Part shown: positions 2,534-64,000 of the stretch, in pieces
How positions within the stretch are numbered: the first letter of the stretch is position 1
How the letters are laid out: the number at the start of each line of letters is the position of its first letter
Origin: Candidatus Omnitrophota bacterium
Lineage (GTDB): Bacteria > Omnitrophota > Gorgyraeia > Tantalellales > Tantalellaceae
NCBI GenBank assembly: GCA_035403965.1
Contig: DAONGE010000003.1
Location: 17,860-81,859, forward strand
DNA length: 64,000 bases
Reading direction: 5' to 3'
The notes under the pieces: generated by a model
Seen by the model: only the letters and a program-made list of their open reading frames with translations
Databases searched by the model: none
Told to the model about the DNA's origin: nothing
Program-made: the position numbers and the translations under genes

Positions 2534-3820
2534 TCAAGTATTTTTTTTGACCTGTTCTATAACAAACTTAAGCGGATCTGCTATTCCCCTTGGGACGATG
2601 AGATCGGGGATGACGCCGTCTGATCCGAGCTTTTCGCCGTTGAAAAGAAAACAGGTCCCTGTGAGGAGTGCCAGCATCGAGCCATCCGGGAAATTATGTG
2701 TGCTTTTAAGGTATGCCATGCCGGCGGTAGGTTCCTGTCCGACTATAACGGCGCGTTTGTACGCCTTAAATGTTCCTGCCATTACTTCGGACGCACTGCC
2801 GCTGCCCCGGTCAATCATGATCATAAGCGGCCCCGTATAGTATGTTTTTGATCCTGCCGTTGTAAGTCCGAAAAGAGGGGTGTTCTTCTTTTGATAGTAG
2901 AAAAGTTTATATTGTGGCGGGATGAACATGGCCGCTAATTCTTTTACGGCGAGTGGTGGCCCACCGGGGTTAGAGCGCAGGTCAATTATCAGCATTTTTG
3001 CCTGGCTCTTATTGATATCGCGTATAAATTCCTCAAGATCCGGGGATGTCATCTGGTTAAATTTAGGAATGCGCAGACAAAATACGCCTGGGGTATTTGT
3101 TTCAGTCTTGAACACGGTTTCTTTAAAATATTCATTAGGTGTTATCTCGTATATTTTTACGGCATTTGATACGGGAGATATGATTTTAAGTTTTACCTTA
3201 GTATTCTCAAGAGGTTGCAGTAGGGAAACCACATCCTCGGGTTTCAGCCCTTTTACGTCCTTGTCATTGATCTCCAGCAGCATGTCGCCTGTGCGTATGC
3301 CTTGTTTAAAAGATTCGGATCTTTTCTCGACGAAGGTTATCGAATATCCTTTTGGGGTCATAGTTCCGGAGATCCCGATATCCATCTTTTTCCCGTATAT
3401 CTCTTTTGAATATTCTTTGGCTATTTTGGGAGGGATGAATGCCGTGAAATGATCTTCAGGGGTTCTTAGCCCTTCTATCATAAGGCCTGCTCCGCGCCAT
3501 GCTATCATCTGGACGAATCCGTCATTCGGGTTTAACTGTGACAGGATGGATCTTTTATACATCTCTATATACTGTTCGTACTTATACCGGTCGACCGGGG
3601 CATAATACTCCTTTTCCATTATGTCATATACCGTGGCTAAAAAATCAAGGTAGGGTTTATAGTATTCAGGATCTTTTTTCTTTGTTAGATCCGGTGATAC
3701 TGAAACGATAATGATAGCCCCGACAAGGGTTACAAGCCCTGCGGTTATCAATTTGTACTTGAAAGGTGCTTTCAGCATTATATCCTCCGTAAAAATACGT
3801 GTTTTGGAACAGTATAGCAT
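2534..3820 (-). CDS. Carboxyl-terminal processing protease (peptidase S41, PDZ-containing, CtpA-like)
   Basis: N-terminal signal/TM anchor. A PDZ-like region 'GDMLLEINDKDVKGL' is present. The S41 core carries 'LIIDLRSNPGGPPLAV' and 'GSGSASEVMAGTFK' (Ser/Lys dyad context). Confidence 0.8.
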   Translation of the reverse strand: MLYCSKTRIFTEDIMLKAPFKYKLITAGLVTLVGAIIIVSVSPDLTKKKDPEYYKPYLDFLATVYDIMEKEYYAPVDRYKYEQYIEMYKRSILSQLNPNDGFVQMIAWRGAGLMIEGLRTPEDHFTAFIPPKIAKEYSKEIYGKKMDIGISGTMTPKGYSITFVEKRSESFKQGIRTGDMLLEINDKDVKGLKPEDVVSLLQPLENTKVKLKIISPVSNAVKIYEITPNEYFKETVFKTETNTPGVFCLRIPKFNQMTSPDLEEFIRDINKSQAKMLIIDLRSNPGGPPLAVKELAAMFIPPQYKLFYYQKKNTPLFGLTTAGSKTYYTGPLMIMIDRGSGSASEVMAGTFKAYKRAVIVGQEPTAGMAYLKSTHNFPDGSMLALLTGTCFLFNGEKLGSDGVIPDLIVPRGIADPLKFVIEQVKKNT

Positions 3821-3853
3821 TACGATAGGGTGGGGACAAGGTTTTTTAAATTT

Positions 3854-6178
3854 TCATTTTCGCGCGGATCTATCCAGTATCACTATGATCAGAGCTAACA
3901 GAGATATTCCTGCTATGGGCAGCGAGGCGGTGTATAGAAATGCTCCAGTTCCGAATATGGCGAAGGACATTACAAAAATTTTTTTATCCCGAAAAAAAGA
4001 TATTATCTGGTTTTGTTCGGTCGGAATAAATCCTATGCATGCGGAGATAGATGTCATTCCGCCGAAAGCCATCAGGATGAGCCCGGCCATTTCGCATGGC
4101 TGGTTTCGGAAGGGTGTGAAAACTAAGGAATTGTTGAGAGACGGGTAAAAAATCCCTAAAGTTATGATAGATATGCCAAAAATAAAAAAAAGTGATGGCA
4201 ATGTCCCGACGTATAAAAGACTTTTTTGCTTGAAGCGTATTTGTGACAATATTTTTGCCAATATAAGCCCAAAAAGGAATAGGATGGCTTCGATCTTGGC
4301 TATTACGGTAGAGTAGGCGGAGGTGTCTTTTTTTGATGTAAACGTATCAATCGAAGAGTTTTGTACCTGAGAAGTTATATCCTGGATTATGCCGAAGATC
4401 CGTTTTTTGATCCTATCCAGACCCAATGTATCGGCCTCCGGGGTTGCCGCGGTTTTTGTATCAGTGATATTTGGCATAAAGAAAGGTAATGCCATGTTTT
4501 CCGAGGCTTCCTTCATTGTAGAAGTATTTTTGTTACGGGTTTCTTTGACCGCCAGTGAGCCGGATTCTATATCTGTGCCATTGTCGTCGGATGTGCTCCC
4601 CTCGTCTAATTCCATACGGTCTATGTGAGGGGAGAACAAGGTCGGTTCGAATATTATCCATCCTTTTTGTGTTCCCAGAAACAAGGTCGCATGCATCTCT
4701 TCGATACTGAGTGTTTTTTCGCCGTTCTTATCCAATGGGAAAAAACCGACCAGCATTACTGGCGAAAGATCGAGGTAAGAAAGATATATGAAAGAATATG
4801 TGGTGAGTATATCACAGTCGCATATGAACGGTTCTCCTGTGCTGATCTTTTCTGATAACATTGAGTTCCATGTTTTTTGGTGTTCCAGATATATGTCGGT
4901 GCCGCCAGCCTGATAGGCAAAAAATTTATTCATTATTGTGGCGACCGCGAATAGCTTGTTGTCCTCGGTGGAATTTTTGTTTTTCCAAAGGATCTCCTGT
5001 ATTTCTGCGGGGATATCGGCGAATTCTTTTTCAAGCCATCCCGTCGGATCATGTTGTATATTTATGAATTTGCCGCAGCCGTTCTTTTTTGAGATTTTAT
5101 ATTCGTACGTTCTGGGAGCTGTATTGGTCAACGCGGACAAAATGCCGTTCGGTGTGATGTCGAAATCCCGGAGAATTGACTCGTCTTGTGATGTTATGCC
5201 GTTAAGGAGAAACGGCAACTGTATGGACTGGTCGGTAGATAAAGAGGGGATCTGCATTTGGATTGATATTGTTTTTGCTCCGCTAAGAGAGATTGGTTGC
5301 GAAGATGAGCCTGTTATGAGAGGTGGGACGAATGAAAGGCTTTCTGAACGCGCAAAACGTCCATCCGTAAGATGGTCGAAAAAAGAATAAACAAAATAAT
5401 CGGTTATTTGGGCGTTTGAGACCTTGGCGATCGCGCCGGATATGCTGATCTCTTCATTCTTTTTGACCGGTGTAGGTGCCGTTAATTTTTCGGATTCCGG
5501 GACAAACACATTGCTGATAGGTTTTATGTCGATTATTGATTCCTGGGCCCGGGATGATCCTTCAACAGTTCCTTTATCTTGCAGCGGAATATTTTTCTTG
5601 TTGTCCTGGAACGGGGATAATAGTGCCGAACCGTCTTCGGACAGATTGGGTTCATCTTTTTCATCGGTCTTTTTGTCTGCACCGGAAGCTCCACTGATCC
5701 CTCCCCCGGAATTTGAACCGCCGGATACCGGGACCGTAGCGGGTCGGGTCGGGCTTTCAGTTAATGCTGATGGAGGAGTTTGGCCGGTGTTCATAAACGG
5801 ATTTTTCTGTCCGGCCGTTATTCCTCCTTTTGCGTCATGTACATTTGTTGTTTTTGGAGGCAGGTTAATAGATTTCCCTATTTCGGCAGGGATGTTTTTT
5901 TTGTGCACGGTAAGGTTGCTTTTTTTGTCGGAATCTTTAGAAGGGTTTGCCGATTTGTACACGATTATTATTGATATCAGAGATACCGTTAATACGACCA
6001 TAACTACCTGTATGATGTCCTGTATTATGATTTTTGGCAGGGGAGGAAGGATGGCTTTGTCAGAGATCTGTTTACGCAGAGATTCTCTTGGACCAAAAAA
6101 ACGTACAGCTAATGGCAGAAAAAGTATAGCCAGAAGTAAGATAATGAGACCCATGAAAAAAAGTAAAATTATGGCCAT
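3854..6178 (-). CDS. Membrane protein with transglutaminase-like cysteine-protease core and low-complexity Ser/Thr/Pro/Gly linker
   Basis: 774 aa. TM helices at the N-terminus and a cluster of about 6 TM helices at the C-terminus. The central region has 'GEPFICDCDILTTYSF' (Cys nucleophile context) and 'HATLFLGTQKGWIIFEPT' (His ... W..xxPT), matching the transglutaminase-like C/H/D(E) arrangement. There are long S/T/P/G-rich stretches. Confidence 0.5.
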   Translation of the reverse strand: MAIILLFFMGLIILLLAILFLPLAVRFFGPRESLRKQISDKAILPPLPKIIIQDIIQVVMVVLTVSLISIIIVYKSANPSKDSDKKSNLTVHKKNIPAEIGKSINLPPKTTNVHDAKGGITAGQKNPFMNTGQTPPSALTESPTRPATVPVSGGSNSGGGISGASGADKKTDEKDEPNLSEDGSALLSPFQDNKKNIPLQDKGTVEGSSRAQESIIDIKPISNVFVPESEKLTAPTPVKKNEEISISGAIAKVSNAQITDYFVYSFFDHLTDGRFARSESLSFVPPLITGSSSQPISLSGAKTISIQMQIPSLSTDQSIQLPFLLNGITSQDESILRDFDITPNGILSALTNTAPRTYEYKISKKNGCGKFINIQHDPTGWLEKEFADIPAEIQEILWKNKNSTEDNKLFAVATIMNKFFAYQAGGTDIYLEHQKTWNSMLSEKISTGEPFICDCDILTTYSFIYLSYLDLSPVMLVGFFPLDKNGEKTLSIEEMHATLFLGTQKGWIIFEPTLFSPHIDRMELDEGSTSDDNGTDIESGSLAVKETRNKNTSTMKEASENMALPFFMPNITDTKTAATPEADTLGLDRIKKRIFGIIQDITSQVQNSSIDTFTSKKDTSAYSTVIAKIEAILFLFGLILAKILSQIRFKQKSLLYVGTLPSLFFIFGISIITLGIFYPSLNNSLVFTPFRNQPCEMAGLILMAFGGMTSISACIGFIPTEQNQIISFFRDKKIFVMSFAIFGTGAFLYTASLPIAGISLLALIIVILDRSARK

Positions 6179-6411
6179 TTTTAGTCCAGGTAAACCAATT
6201 AATTTTTTTGGATACGATCGTTGCTATATGAAGAAGTATATACAAAAAATGTCGCTTTTCCAATGGAGATGTGTGTCATCTTCGATAGCCACTGCGATTC
6301 CCTCGACAGAACGCTTTGCTCTGATCTTTACCGCATGGTAGTGGTGCGCATGTCTAGGCTCGATTTTTAGACATTTATTTTTGGATTTGGTATAATACTT
6401 AAGATGGTAAT

Positions 6412-34115: not shown

Positions 34116-37100
34116 ATGAGAGTAGATATGGGAAGATTAAGCAGGATGATAGACAGCGGGAAGGTGAAAACACTGTTCAAAAAGACGGTGTCTTCTATTG
34201 TGGCGTTTACTTTTCTTGCTACTAGTTTCTATTACGATAATGCCCAGGCTTCAAATATCAGTATGCCAGTCGTAGCGGTCGACAGTAACCCGGTAAATTC
34301 TTCAACAAATAATATACAGAGAATCCTTGATCCCAAAACATTTACTTTGCCGGAGAACTTGGGAAAGGTTGTCGATTCATGGGCAGTGAAAGATGCCCTT
34401 AAGAACGGCGACGCGAAACTTGTTATCTACATTCAGGACGCGCATTGTAACTACGGCGCGCAGAATTCCATTTCCGAGATCATCGATCTGCTCAATAAAG
34501 AATATTCCGTGAACATGGTCAATCTTGAAGGAGGAACAGGCGATTATGATCTTTCGGTTTTTACGGATATCAAGGATAAGGCGATCCGCGCCAAGGTAGC
34601 GGATTATTTTGAGAAAGAGGGGATACTGAGCGGCGCGGAATCGTTCGCCGCAAATAATCCCGAAAAGGTATCGCTCTGGGGGCTGGAAAACACCGAACTT
34701 TATATCAAAAATCTAAATGTCTATCGCGATTCGCTTACATATAAAAACGAGGCTGAAGGCTATATAAAAGCGATAAGTCGCGATCTTTCTGCGCTGAAAA
34801 CGAAGATTTACTCGCCGGAATTGCTGTCTCTGGATATGAAATACACGGCGTATAAAGCGGGGAATGCGGATCTAAAGACATATCTTCTTGGGTTAACTGA
34901 GACGGCTAAGAATGAGGGTATAAACCTTAAGTCCTATCCGAATATTTTCTTTATGATCCAGACTCTGGCTCTTGAGAACACTATCAATTTCAAAAGGGCC
35001 GAGACCGAACGAAGTATCCTGGTGGATGAATTGAGCAAAAAACTGCCGAAAAGCAGGATGGAAGACCTCGCCGCTAAAACTATTGAGTTCAGGTCAGGAA
35101 AAGTGTCGCAAAGGTATTTTTATGCGTATCTGCTGGACGAAGCGAAGATGATAAATCTTGAGATCGACACCTTCGGCGAACTCAAGAAATATATGCTTTA
35201 TATCGAGATCTTCGATGCCGTGGATAAGTCGAGAATCATGGATGAGATGGAAGGACTTGAGAACGCGGTGCGTGCAAGTATCTACACGAACGATGATGAA
35301 CGCTCTCTTAATACGCTTTCAAAGAACCTTATCCTTCTTAAGAATATGTTCAATATCTCGTTCACCCGGAGCGATCACAAATATTACAAGGACAACGCCA
35401 AGGGTTTCGCCGCGGAAGGGTTCATCTCGTTCATAAAAACGGAATCCCCGAAGTACGGGATAACCCCGTCGGCGGACGAAAAAGCCCTCGCGCTCGATAA
35501 ATTCCGCGAAGAGATATCCTGTTTTTATGAATATTCGTTCGCGAGGGACGAGGTGTTCATAAAAAACATAAAGATGAACGCTACTCCCTCCGCTAATGCT
35601 AAATGCGCGGTTATGGTAAGCGGCGGTTTCCATTCCGAGAACATGTATGAACTTTTCCGGAAGAACAATATATCGTACATATCGATAATGCCTAATTTTA
35701 AGAATTGCGACGGGTATGAATGCCCGTATTTCGATCTCTTGGGCGGTAAATACGGTAAGGTGCTGAACGCCCTTTCCGGTAGTGCGACATCGAATTTGGC
35801 GTTGTTTAGTTTCTTCTGTAAAGATGCATCGACGGTGGTCAACGGGGAGATGACGGAGGCTGGGGTTAAGACATGGTCGGTTCTTGTAAGGGCTATGTTT
35901 GAGTCCGATCTTTCAAAGGGACCGGTCGAGGTCAAAGGTGAAGGGGATAATGTTGGATACGTTATCGGTGGAGAGCCTGACCCTAATAACGAAAGCATTA
36001 CTCTCGATATGGACGGGAGACGAGTTCTGGTTCAGCGCGTAAAAACAGCCGAAAATATTTTATCTGCAACCGTCGCTGGAGATGTGGGAGCGAATGCTAA
36101 AAATGTTGGTATGAAGTCTGTCGCAACCCCGGATGATACGGAATTTTTATCATATTCTAAAATGACGCCAGAGGAATTGGATCGTGTCGAATCGGATCTT
36201 GTACAGAAAGTGCGTGGGTTATGTATGCGTCATGCCGGGCTGGCAGCTAGCGCATCCGATATTGACAATATTGCGGATATCTGTCGTAGCGTTTTATGGC
36301 TTGATGTTTATTTGACAGACAGGAAAGAGGTCGAGCGGGAGTTTTTAGAATCGTTTGATCTCATTACCCAGATATTTCATGGGAATCAGATATTAGAGCT
36401 TTTGGTGTCAGTGCTTCGTTTTGCCGATGAAGCGGAAAGAGGCAACGAGGATGCGGTGGAATTTGTGAAGAGTGTGGCAAAATTACAAGCGATCAACGAT
36501 GTTCCCAGTCAGGATGGCCGTTCGCAGACATTGCCATATTGTAAAAGTCGGAAGCCATATCTGGACATGGCGAGCGGACCGAATATTATATATTTCACAG
36601 CAGATATAAAGCAAAATGCCCAGGTTGAACACTATCTGGTGGATACTTCCTTGTTCGCGAATACATATCTCAAAATGGTCATGGCATTGAGAAATATTCA
36701 TAACGTAGAAGTGAAACAAGAAGATGTGCTGAATTTAAATTTCAAAGAGGGGAGTTTGGGCGCAGTTCGTCTGAAAAATTTATATACATATGTGCGAGAA
36801 CAGGTTTTAAAACAAATTGTCCAAAAATATGGCGAGGTGGATCTTGACTTCCACCTAAAAGAATATTGGGATGAATATTGGGATCGGGTGGCGGCTTGGC
36901 TTGAACCGGCGGCTATGGTCGATGGACATGTCCAAATCCGTGGACAGATATTTGTGCAGTCCGATTTGTCGGTGGGGCACCGGGCTAACATGGCTGAGAT
37001 CGTGCATGATATGTACGATGTGCTGGTTTCCCAAAAAGGCTGGGCGTTTGATTTTAAACTGGGGATTGATAAAGGTGGTTTTAGATATGATGTGCTTGAT

Positions 37101-62216: not shown

Positions 62217-63218
62217 ATGAAGAAATTATCGAGACAGGCATTTGTTAAACGGGTATGCGATACGATCAAGCATTGTGATATGCTGCATGCCGGGGATAGG
62301 GTTTTAGTCGCGGTCTCGGGCGGGCCGGATTCTGTATGCCTTCTATCCGTGCTTTTATGCATAAGGAATAAATTTGGTATAACGGTTTCCGTGGCTAACA
62401 TGGATCATTGTATCCGTGGAGAGGAATCCGCGCGTGATTCGCGGTTCGTGAAAGAGTTATGCGAAAAAATGGGCGTGGATTGTGTTTATGAAAAGATACC
62501 GATAAAGGTTCCGGAGGGGGATGACCGTTCTGTAGAGGAAGTGGCGCGCGCGAAACGTTATGATCTTTTCTTCCGCGCGGCGGGAAAGACATCTTCTAAT
62601 GTTATTGCCACTGGACATACGCTGGACGATCAGGCCGAGACCGTGCTTATGAGGTTTTTAACAGGAGCTTCTCTTAAAAGTATGGCCGGGATACCTCCCG
62701 TTCGCGACGAAAACGGGATAAAGATCATCCGACCTTTGATAAATGCCGATAAAAAAGAGGTTATTGGTTATCTTGAAACGGTGGGGTTGGATTACTGCCA
62801 TGACAGTACGAACGATGAAAAAGATTATTTAAGGAACAAGGTAAGGCTTGATATCCTGCCGTTTCTTGAAAAATATAATCCGCGTGTGAAAAGAACGATG
62901 GTTAATTTTTGCGAAGCCGTGCGTGAGGATATGGCGCTGGTAGAGATCGTGAAAAAGAAAAGTTTAAAAAATATGCCGTCAGATAAAGATAATTCTATTT
63001 TGCTCAAGGACATCCTTTTACAGCCGGTCGCTGTGCGAAAAGAAATGTTTAAGGAGCTTTTTATGAGAGCGGGAGGGGATATTAAAAAATTGACATATCG
63101 CCACTGGAAAGATATGGAGCATTTTATCCGTACTGCTCAAAAAGGTAATTCTCTCAATCTGCCAGGTAATGTCTCGGTTTCGCGAGGCCGGGATTCGATC
63201 AAATTTCAAAAACAATAG
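62217..63218 (+). CDS. tilS: tRNA(Ile)-lysidine synthetase
   Basis: PP-loop 'VLVAVSGGPDSVCLLSVL' and 'ATGHTLDDQAETVLMR'. Confidence 0.85.
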   Translation: MKKLSRQAFVKRVCDTIKHCDMLHAGDRVLVAVSGGPDSVCLLSVLLCIRNKFGITVSVANMDHCIRGEESARDSRFVKELCEKMGVDCVYEKIPIKVPEGDDRSVEEVARAKRYDLFFRAAGKTSSNVIATGHTLDDQAETVLMRFLTGASLKSMAGIPPVRDENGIKIIRPLINADKKEVIGYLETVGLDYCHDSTNDEKDYLRNKVRLDILPFLEKYNPRVKRTMVNFCEAVREDMALVEIVKKKSLKNMPSDKDNSILLKDILLQPVAVRKEMFKELFMRAGGDIKKLTYRHWKDMEHFIRTAQKGNSLNLPGNVSVSRGRDSIKFQKQ

Positions 63219-63338
63219 TTTTGTTTGAGTATTCTGCGTCCCTACTGTATAATATTGAAATTATTTTTGTTGCCCTAACAATGTTGCATTGATATAATGT
63301 TAGGCAAATAAAAACCAAAATAATCGTCAGGAGTTGAG

Positions 63339-64000
63339 TTGAGCACGGTATTCACAACATATCGACGGGCTGTTCTATATACTATATGTAAAGCTATTGG
63401 AAACGGGGATTTAACCAAATTTTTAAGGTCGGTGGTGGCAGTATCCACGATAGCGGCCTTTTTGGGGAATAGTATTGGTGTAGAACTGGCCGGCGCAATG
63501 GAAAAACCGGATATGCGTTTTCCTGCTCCGGTGGATGTCTTGTCTGTAAATAACAGCGATCGAGCCCTAACAGGTCTTTGCCTGCCCGCGAGTCTTGGCG
63601 AAATAAAAAAACAATATGCCGGCACTAACGGAAAAACCGTTATTAATATCCAAGACGCCCATTGTAATTATTCATGCCAGAAAAATATCAGTTTGATTTT
63701 TGATCTCTTGAACCAAGAGACGAATGTTAACGTCGCTCTTTTAGAAGGAGGCGCGGGTGAATACGATCTGTCTGTTTTTCAGGATATGAAAGACGTGGAG
63801 ATCCGCGAAAAAGTAGCGGATTATTTTGTGAAAGAGGGCAGGATGAACGGTGCCGAGTATTTTGCCGTTAATAATCCGGGGCGCGTAACGTTGAAGGGGC
63901 TTGAGGATGAAAATGCTTATCTGAAAAACCTTAAAATATACCGCGATAATGTCAGGTCAAAGGACAAAGCTGAATTTATCCTTAAAAGTTTATCTAATGC
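63339..64000 (+). CDS. 5' part of a second gene paralogous to the giant protein N-terminus. It is interrupted by a +1 frameshift in an A7 run and continues beyond the window edge.
   Basis: RBS 'aggag' at 63329-33, then TTG at 63339. Frame 0 gives 'DLTKFLRSVVAVSTIAAFLGNSIGV...TGLCLPASLG' and ends at 63627. Frame +1, open from 63571, gives 'EIKKQYAGTNGKTVINIQDAHCNYSCQKNISLIFDLLNQETNVNVALLEGGAGEYDLSVF...'. Both frames align to giant-protein residues about 15 to 240. The frames meet around 'ggcgaaataaaaaaacaa' (63597..63614). Confidence 0.55.
   Translation, partial: MSTVFTTYRRAVLYTICKAIGNGDLTKFLRSVVAVSTIAAFLGNSIGVELAGAMEKPDMRFPAPVDVLSVNNSDRALTGLCLPASLGEIKKQYAGTNGKTVINIQDAHCNYSCQKNISLIFDLLNQETNVNVALLEGGAGEYDLSVFQDMKDVEIREKVADYFVKEGRMNGAEYFAVNNPGRVTLKGLEDENAYLKNLKIYRDNVRSKDKAEFILKSLSN

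Follow-up and report, generated by a model that had tools for sequence, protein, structure and literature searches.

The 3′-terminal 662 nt of the 64,000-nt stretch of Candidatus Omnitrophota DNA analysed here (the window), positions 63339-64000, are very probably the intact 5′ end of an ordinary gene, p1, which contains no frameshift and has only an N-terminal module in common with the giant gene lying ~8 kb upstream. We further found that p1 is intact, that selection maintains it and that it belongs to a large unnamed family of Omnitrophota proteins. An earlier sequence-only reading of this region had placed a +1 frameshift in an A7 homopolymer near the start of the gene and had explained it as a sequencing error, a phase-variable slippery tract or a fresh pseudogene. 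No frameshift exists in the sequence, which leaves neither a phase switch nor a sequencing error nor a pseudogene to account for.

A single reading frame crosses the A7 tract

Forward three-frame translation of positions 63100-64000 revealed that the first 220 codons of p1 (63339-64000, + strand) form a single open frame, running from the TTG start codon at 63339-63341 to the end of the window without any stop. This is the frame of position 63324, which opens after the TAA at 63321-63323 and is stop-free from 63324 to 64000; the remaining two forward frames contain 18 stops each between 63340 and 63995. The two overlapping frames reported earlier, 63324..63627 and 63571..end, do not exist; there is no stop at 63627, and the frame named from 63571 is not open, with 18 stops between 63340 and 63922. 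An antisense ORF of 116 aa (63275..63625) faces a conserved coding frame and was for that reason considered spurious.

The A7 homopolymer does exist, at 63605-63611 (+ strand), one base to the right of the position first assigned to it (63604-63610), and it is read in frame. The sequence GAA ATA AAA AAA CAA encodes Glu88-Ile89-Lys90-Lys91-Gln92, with ATA AAA AAA giving Ile-Lys-Lys. When the 220 residues encoded in the window were compared by BLASTP with the first 500 residues of the giant protein, one alignment crossed the A-tract without a break (p1 residues 16-219 with giant residues 8-221, 43% identity, E 3e-49), taking in the IQDAHCNY and LEGGxGxYDLSVF blocks. The similarity to the giant N-terminus that had been noticed around the IQDAHCNY block is therefore real, but it consists of one single-frame alignment and not of two frames. 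Deletion of one A, which had been expected to restore a single frame, has the reverse effect, shifting translation into a frame that stops at 63694. The supposed frameshift arose from losing track of the reading frame.

The gene next to p1 (62217-63218) was matched on seven public contigs, with the places listed for five of the seven. Over all 11,784 of the 11,784 overlapping bases, the window is identical to L001 (NCBI GCA_964457255.1, contig CAYWFL010000005.1, 92.9 kb, a Candidatus Omnitrophota MAG). The tract itself is covered by four independent assemblies, namely L001, two JGI metagenomes, 3300010352 and 3300025858 (L002 and L003), and the Logan assembly of SRR5007244 (L005). All four carry A7, always in frame, and agree with the window at every one of the 662 nt of 63339-64000; matches to the p1 of L001 in the other assemblies extend over 1,635-1,745 nt, again with no mismatches. 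A tract length that differs between assemblies, as would be expected of a contingency gene, was looked for in the four covering assemblies and not found, these lengths being read from consensus assemblies, which minority A6 or A8 variants in the population could escape. The tract is also unremarkable in its surroundings, as the window contains 57 A7 tracts compared to 46 ± 9 in shuffled sequences, and p1 holds further in-frame A8, A7 and T8 runs.

p1 continues beyond the window and has a tandem copy

The possibility had been raised that the ORF would not continue past the window edge. A continuation was found in L001, where p1 extends to 1,827 aa in one frame and is followed on its 3′ side, after a 470-nt spacer, by a tandem copy of 1,834 aa (p2) with 68% identity to p1 over 1,313 aa. 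The p1-p2 region includes a 450-nt stretch of about 100% identity, which may reflect gene conversion or else an assembly collapse. At the tract site p2 reads GAA ATT AAA AAA CTA, which also encodes Ile-Lys-Lys; the tract is A6 and not A7 owing to the use of ATT for Ile in place of ATA. Comparison of the tract elsewhere, as had been proposed, thus yielded Ile-Lys-Lys in every case, with A7 in the four assemblies and A6 in p2, and no frame switch. The dN/dS ratio between p1 and p2 (Nei-Gojobori) was 0.28 overall and 0.11-0.15 in the head domain described below, which places both genes under purifying selection; neither is a pseudogene. Neither a disrupted frame nor relaxed selection, the marks of a pseudogene, was detected in p1, given its 1,827 open codons and the dN/dS of 0.28.

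A +1 frameshift splitting p1 at the A7 tract, be it a sequencing error, a phase-variable contingency tract or a recent pseudogene, is extremely improbable in the light of these data. The tract does sit in the 5′ part of the p1 coding region, and homopolymers as long as A7 can slip. Neisseria, Haemophilus and Campylobacter are well known for contingency genes whose phase variation involves a homopolymer tract in the 5′ part of the coding sequence, and p1 resembles such genes in having a 5′ homopolymer, in being a probable surface protein and in belonging to a multi-copy family. However, it differs from them in that its tract is only 7 nt long, occurs at background frequency, lies in frame and is identical in four assemblies, and also in that p2 has not kept it as a tract, retaining Ile-Lys-Lys with A6 by means of a synonymous Ile codon. 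Moreover, the absence of stops in the p1 frame compared to 18 in the alleged second frame, the continuous protein alignment to the giant protein across the tract, the concordance of the assemblies, the 1,827 open codons, the other in-frame homopolymers and the dN/dS ratio all speak against a frameshift. As error, phase switch and pseudogene all presuppose a frameshift that is absent, the three were set aside for the assembled sequence. No evidence contrary to the reading of p1 as an intact gene was found in this analysis.

Start site and expression signals of p1

The TTG-started ORF with an AGGAG ribosome-binding site, proposed earlier for the window edge, was confirmed (Shine-Dalgarno AGGAG at 63329-63333, + strand, separated by a 5-nt spacer from the TTG at 63339-63341), and p2 has AGGGG at the same place. 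Between the stop at 63321 and the GTG at 63432, no other canonical start codon than this TTG is in frame, and a gene caller run on the identical contig (L001:11123-16606) selected the same TTG, giving 1,827 aa. In contrast, P0001, as the identical protein is recorded at NCBI, has 1,796 aa and begins 31 residues further on, at GTG 63432. The 31 residues between both codons are conserved in p2 (LSTVFTTYRRAVLY... in p1 and LSTIFTTYRQAVLY... in p2), and p1 residues 16-31 align with the N-terminus of the giant protein, so that the TTG at 63339 is the better supported start. The NCBI start at GTG 63432 probably cuts off 31 conserved residues, and the likely correction of this annotation is a first, modest result of practical value.

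A consensus scan detected a sigma-70-like, promoter-like site ahead of p1 (63270-63298, + strand) with 10 of 12 matches, consisting of TTGCCC, a 17-nt spacer and TG-n-TATAAT (extended -10). If this site is used, the transcript would start ~30-35 nt ahead of the p1 start codon. A site of this layout with TTGAAC, 17 nt and TATAAT precedes p2 as well, together with a nearly identical 52-nt leader, and this common layout suggests that each copy probably has its own promoter. An Rfam scan of positions 62800-64000 found no RNA family and thus no known leader or riboswitch, and no site resembling an intrinsic terminator was found between the upstream gene and p1.

p1 and the giant protein share an N-terminal module

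The giant paralogue is encoded at 34116-55097 (+ strand) and is 6,993 aa long from the first ATG; its NCBI record gives 6,989 aa, which implies a start at ATG 34128. Full-length p1 matched it with an E value of 2e-83 over 569 aa, and the homologous region (34137-35798) covers only its first ~560 aa. Both p1 and p2 are 34-36% identical to the giant protein across these first ~560 residues, whereas their later ~1,260 residues are unlike it. The earlier description of p1 as a giant-protein paralogue is consequently valid for the N-terminal ~560 aa, while the other ~1,260 aa of p1 are unrelated to the giant protein. The accompanying proposal that the giant gene belongs to a multi-copy family holds, as p1, p2 and the database and genomic relatives described below demonstrate. 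Downstream of the common module, the giant protein contains Pfam domains HATPase_c_3 (PF13589), GNAT, HD and two methyltransferase regions, plus a sub-threshold match to ART-PolyVal.

The surroundings of both genes add no functional clue. The genes preceding the giant gene have housekeeping functions and encode glutamine synthetase III, NAD synthase, glutamate synthase, carbamoyl-phosphate synthase and CTP synthase, and the interval between the giant gene and p1 encodes an AsmA/DUF748-like protein, a hydrolase, a GGDEF regulator, a pilin-like protein, an epimerase, QueH and a PP-loop ATPase. No dedicated transporter gene adjoins p1 within the window.

The module common to p1, p2 and the giant protein is composed of a basic stretch, one hydrophobic segment and a head domain of ~490 residues. 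In p1, a Kyte-Doolittle scan located the segment, a signal or signal anchor, at aa 32-50 (63432-63488, + strand; VVAVSTIAAFLGNSIGVEL, followed by AGA), with the basic stretch ahead of it and a net positive charge on its N-side. The equivalent segment of the giant protein is KK-TVSSIVAFTFLATSFYY-DNAQA, and in both proteins an A-x-A motif follows the hydrophobic residues, as in a cleavable signal peptide. A hydrophobic segment precedes the DAHC motif in 79 of 120 homologues. Additional hydrophobic clusters are present at aa 1091-1184 of p1 and 1105-1259 of the giant protein. Judging from the hydropathy scan and the charge bias, and following the positive-inside rule, the N-terminus would stay in the cytoplasm and the head would be exported, with the segment either being cleaved off as a signal peptide or remaining as a signal anchor.

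A head domain unites a large family of Omnitrophota proteins

According to phmmer boundaries, alignments and an AlphaFold model, the whole head domain spans aa ~77-563 of p1, and its N-terminal third is encoded in the window (63567-64000, + strand), which ends at aa 220. A database search with full-length p1 retrieved 129 proteins, with E values down to 1e-35, nearly all of them named Omnitrophota or Omnitrophica. Among the matches listed (120 of the 129), lengths ranged from 1,000 to 3,200 aa and the head was N-terminal in every one, starting at residue ~1-175 by phmmer boundaries. Except for p1 itself and a p2-like sequence, the matches share only the first 24-33% of the query. In these relatives the downstream part carries diverse Pfam domains, including protein kinase, GNAT, methyltransferases, HATPase_c, radical SAM, metallophosphatase, SpoIIE, patatin, M20 peptidase and PEP-utilising domains.

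In species-representative genomes we found 463 coding relatives, several per genome and sometimes in tandem, located in Omnitrophota MAGs or in MAGs auto-labelled Planctomycetia. A profile of the head part encoded in the window matched at least 8,012 cluster representatives at E <= 1e-3, of which 6,451 remained at E <= 1e-10; among the best 150 of the 8,012, the head starts at residue 13-170 in proteins of 188-6,489 aa. All named matches found for the head come from Omnitrophota or from MAGs auto-labelled Planctomycetia, and the family appears to be confined to Omnitrophota. Homology to the head, by which the family is defined here, the N-terminal position of the head after a hydrophobic segment and the invariant motifs are all found in p1. 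The window-encoded fragment, full-length p1 and p2 gave no Pfam match even at E <= 1, and NCBIfam contained nothing relevant to the head. A second modest result of value is that an unannotated head unites at least 8,012 clusters of long multi-enzyme Omnitrophota proteins into one very large subfamily.

Conserved motifs and predicted fold of the head domain

In an alignment of 40 sequences, the motif Q-D-A-H-C-N (p1 Q105-N110, 63651-63668, + strand) has invariant D, A, H and C, with Q and N conserved in at least 90%. It is followed by L-E-G-G (p1 L135-G138, 63741-63752, + strand), in which E and the first G are invariant and E136 lies 28 residues after H108. Further invariant motifs of p1 fall beyond the window in L001, and correspond to R476-D477 and to G499-G-F-H502, the family form of which is (T/S)GGFH. 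An AlphaFold model of p1 aa 59-600, built with the 40-sequence alignment (pLDDT 87.6, pTM 0.80), predicts an alpha/beta core with parallel strands, in which six beta-strands are flanked by helices and an all-helical insert of ~300 residues separates strands 4 and 5.

These motifs recall the TIKI superfamily, which has a parallel beta-sheet core and a 2His/2Glu site and includes Tiki, Ere, Bcr135 and the MARTX effector RRSP (PMC6254334). In its site, E-x-H is followed by a Glu 28 residues past the His and by a later His, the 28-residue spacing corresponding to His85/Glu113 in Bcr135 and to His3902/Glu3930 in VvRRSP (PMC6254334). The head of p1 matches this pattern, in sequence and in spacing along the chain only, through D106-A-H108, E136 and G499-G-F-H502. 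The likeness lies in an acid-x-His, a Glu 28 residues on and a C-terminal G-x-x-His, together with the parallel-stranded alpha/beta core that the model predicts. The p1 head differs from the superfamily, however, in having Asp in place of the first Glu (QDAH, and not E-x-H or GxxH), an invariant Cys after the His and a core split by the ~300-residue helical insert, and in that heads of this family are fused to very long variable tails. If the comparison is correct, D106 and H108 are candidates for the acid and the His of a TIKI-type active site.

Sequence and structure searches gave leads below significance. Matches were obtained for PF04187 (ChaN) in 6 of 21 members (best E 9.6e-4; listed members at 15-16 bits compared to a 27.7-bit cutoff), for PF18950 (best E 8.3e-4, 20.2 bits compared to a 27.5 cutoff) and for PF01963 (TraB/PrgY/GumN; 12 bits compared to a 26.8 cutoff). 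All of them came only from core-only constructs without the helical insert, and they were colinear, aligning at the G-x-x-H end of the models. No head-family member searched matched a TIKI family above the curated Pfam threshold, and PDB sequence searches, whether with a profile of the full alignment, with one restricted to the core or with the p1 tail, produced noise only and nothing relevant. When the full head model was compared with the PDB by Foldseek, no match fell below E 0.085; EreC and Bcr135 were among the weak, non-significant matches, and the pore-forming toxins and chemoreceptors heading the list were discounted. Helical-bundle proteins top that list because of the helical insert of the head. 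With a separate model of the N-subdomain (63564-63998; pLDDT 87, first 35 residues unstructured), Foldseek returned only generic Rossmann-like noise, and a literature search found no link of Omnitrophota to TIKI, TraB, ChaN or Ere. As no single test was significant, we lean just slightly towards considering the head a divergent form of the TIKI/TraB/ChaN/erythromycin-esterase fold. The motif pattern being present and the sequence threshold not being reached, p1 may work like a TIKI hydrolase, and we do not file it as a member of the superfamily.

Possible roles of the head domain

As the likeliest mechanism, it can be proposed that the hydrophobic segment would carry the head across the cytoplasmic membrane. 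There, the head would be a divergent hydrolase of the TIKI/TraB/ChaN/erythromycin-esterase fold, with Asp106-x-His108, Glu136 and His502 as the candidate catalytic set and the ~300-residue helical insert within the fold, and, tethered to the membrane outside the cytoplasm, would work as a protease or esterase whose target is either the cell surface or the variable cargo of the same protein. We regard such a membrane-tethered extracytoplasmic hydrolase role, possibly directed at its own cargo or at the surface of a partner cell, as conceivable but doubtful. Equally tentative is any enzymatic or host-interaction role. The export of enzyme cargo is countered by the many relatives that carry kinase, GNAT, methyltransferase or radical-SAM domains, as such tails need cytoplasmic cofactors.

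A non-catalytic head, in which the conserved polar residues would bind a metal or ligand instead of catalysing hydrolysis, is a rather unlikely alternative; it would make the head a ChaN-like ligand or haem binder, or else a recognition or anchoring domain for export or surface attachment. The best Pfam lead, ChaN (PF04187), is indeed a haem-binding member of the superfamily, some proteins of the TIKI fold such as PMT lack activity (PMC6254334), and proteins with export-targeting domains are usually built in this way, with a conserved N-terminus preceding a hypervariable C-terminus. Yet the acid-His-Glu-His set, the Cys and the Arg-Asp pair are invariant across sequences 30-41% identical to p1, which fits a catalytic site better than a binding surface, and export targeting finds no dedicated transporter gene adjoining p1 within the window. 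It is less likely still that the hydrophobic segment merely anchors a protein whose bulk is cytoplasmic, so that the family would be made of membrane-tethered cytoplasmic multi-enzyme scaffolds. This would agree with the use of ATP, SAM or acetyl-CoA by the C-terminal domains of the relatives, and the accessible part of a 2026 preprint takes many long Omnitrophota proteins to be membrane-anchored with a cytoplasmic bulk (10.64898/2026.06.07.730766). Against this, the distribution of charges flanking the segment points to N-in, C-out in both p1 and the giant protein, and in both an A-x-A motif follows it. Tiki, TraB/PrgY and ChaN, moreover, are typically extracytoplasmic.

Going further, the head could represent an undescribed, catalytically active branch of the TIKI/Ere/ChaN group and serve as the common export or processing module of an exported, phylum-wide family, which on present data is improbable. 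If true, the family would comprise at least 8,000 clusters (50% identity) of Omnitrophota proteins that are exported and whose enzyme-rich tails are interchangeable. Their head might, for example, cleave the variable cargo or release it, at the surface of the cell or into a host, and ultra-small bacteria with a predatory or episymbiotic life would then have a parallel, in architecture, to MARTX and polymorphic toxins. Should the head be a TIKI-type hydrolase, residues D106, H108, E136 and H502 would offer a testable entry to the export or processing of these proteins.

Comparison with known large proteins

The family shares with MARTX and polymorphic toxins a constant N-terminal module combined with interchangeable enzymatic C-termini and the presence of several copies per genome (PMC6254334). 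Unlike them, the proteins analysed here had no detectable RTX repeats, TPS domain, Rhs/YD repeats or cysteine-protease processing domain, and no adjoining immunity or transporter genes were detected; the analogy is architectural only.

A closer comparison is provided by the long proteins of Omnitrophota themselves. In their accessible parts, Seymour et al. 2023, West-Roberts et al. 2023 and Nielsen & Lui 2026 (PMC10066038; 10.1101/2023.11.21.568195; 10.64898/2026.06.07.730766) deal with proteins that reach 10,000 aa or more, or with ORFs exceeding 20 kb, in classes set by their C39 peptidase, SecA-DEAD or dockerin content. By contrast, p1 is 1,827 aa long; together with p2 (1,834 aa) and the giant protein (6,993 aa) it remains below 10,000 aa and outside the Archaeovorin/dockerin-type classes, and Pfam detected no Dockerin/TSP3, C39 peptidase or SecA-DEAD domain in any of the three. 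A common N-terminal head of ~490 aa in proteins of ~1,000 to ~6,500 aa is not described in those parts of the literature on long Omnitrophota proteins that were available. With "module 1" of the 2026 preprint, as far as its accessible text defines it, the giant protein shares a methyltransferase, an HSP90/histidine-kinase-type ATPase, GNAT and HD, although its ATPase is the related PF13589 and not PF02518 (10.64898/2026.06.07.730766). The long proteins covered by these sources also belong to the same phylum as p1 and the giant protein, and resemble them in their signal peptide or transmembrane segments and in their poor conservation outside a few domains. The p1 family falls within this recognised phenomenon of long, membrane-associated, enzyme-rich Omnitrophota proteins.

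Tandem paralogues p1 and p2 form a mosaic

The intact paralogue p1, which starts at a TTG codon at window position 63339 and continues beyond the window edge to a length of 1,827 aa, is followed by a tandem sister copy, p2 (1,834 aa). Comparison of the two copies showed a nucleotide identity of 0.53–0.86 across most of their length, with two tracts of much higher identity, both outside the window. The first, of about 450 nt (p1 nt ~1627–2076; 12749–13198 in L001, the NCBI assembly GCA_964457255.1 contig CAYWFL010000005.1, which matches the window), is 0.99–1.00 identical, and the second, of 150 nt (L001:14099–14248 in p1), is 0.96 identical. The dS between the copies was 1.3–1.9 in the head domain and 0.37–0.58 elsewhere. 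The tandem copies are a mosaic, and this uneven identity and dS suggests either recent gene conversion between them or a collapse of the assembly.

Five assemblies from different samples were almost identical across 5.8–12.9 kb, the sole differences from L001 being two mismatches, at positions 3049 and 3051, in L002 (JGI metagenome 3300010352, contig Ga0116247_10000408). The source population appears, from these sequences, to be highly clonal and widespread. The giant protein is called as 6,983 aa in the L002 record versus 6,989 aa.

Upstream regions and start codon of p1

The -10 box, leader and ribosome-binding site all fall within the ~52 nt that precede the TTG starts of p1 (window 63287–63338) and p2 (L001:17026–17077), a stretch that is nearly identical in the two copies; upstream of it, their identity drops to about 35–50%. 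By eye, several GC-rich hairpin-like palindromes were seen in the p1–p2 spacer (L001:16607–17077, outside the window), namely CCCCGGACTTGTCCGGGG; TTCCCGC...GCGGGAA; and ATCCCCGC...GCGGGGAT, which may be terminators or REP-like elements.

The NCBI annotation of P0001 (1,796 aa), the record of the protein identical to p1, implies that translation begins at the GTG at 63432, which lies 31 codons after the TTG. As the 31 residues encoded by window 63339–63431 are kept in p2, and residues 16–31 of p1 align with the N-terminus of the giant protein, the deposited start is probably too short. A 116-aa ORF with a GTG start on the minus strand (window 63275–63625), antisense to the promoter region and to the beginning of p1, is probably spurious.

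Across the whole window (1–64000), GC skew was positive in all 2-kb bins (0.08–0.25) and, from ~6.4 kb onwards, nearly every long ORF lies on the plus strand, consistent with the entire window belonging to one leading-strand replichore.

The head-domain family and the giant protein

The family defined by the head domain is very large, with at least 8,012 clusters at 50% identity, and has no model in Pfam or NCBIfam. Within this MAG series (locus-tag prefix PKY78) there is at least one additional copy, P0073 (1,461 aa), bringing the paralogues of this organism to at least four.

In the giant protein (window 34116–55097, plus strand; 6,993 aa), the head domain is accompanied by several Pfam domains: HATPase_c_3 (aa ~1590–1671), GNAT (~3299–3408), HD (~4544–4602), a sub-threshold ART-PolyVal match (~5102–5217) and two methyltransferase regions (~5675–5810 and ~6120–6260). 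Hydrophobic clusters are located at aa 1105–1259, ~2031 and 3766–3847, the first of them being roughly as far from the N-terminus as its counterpart in p1.
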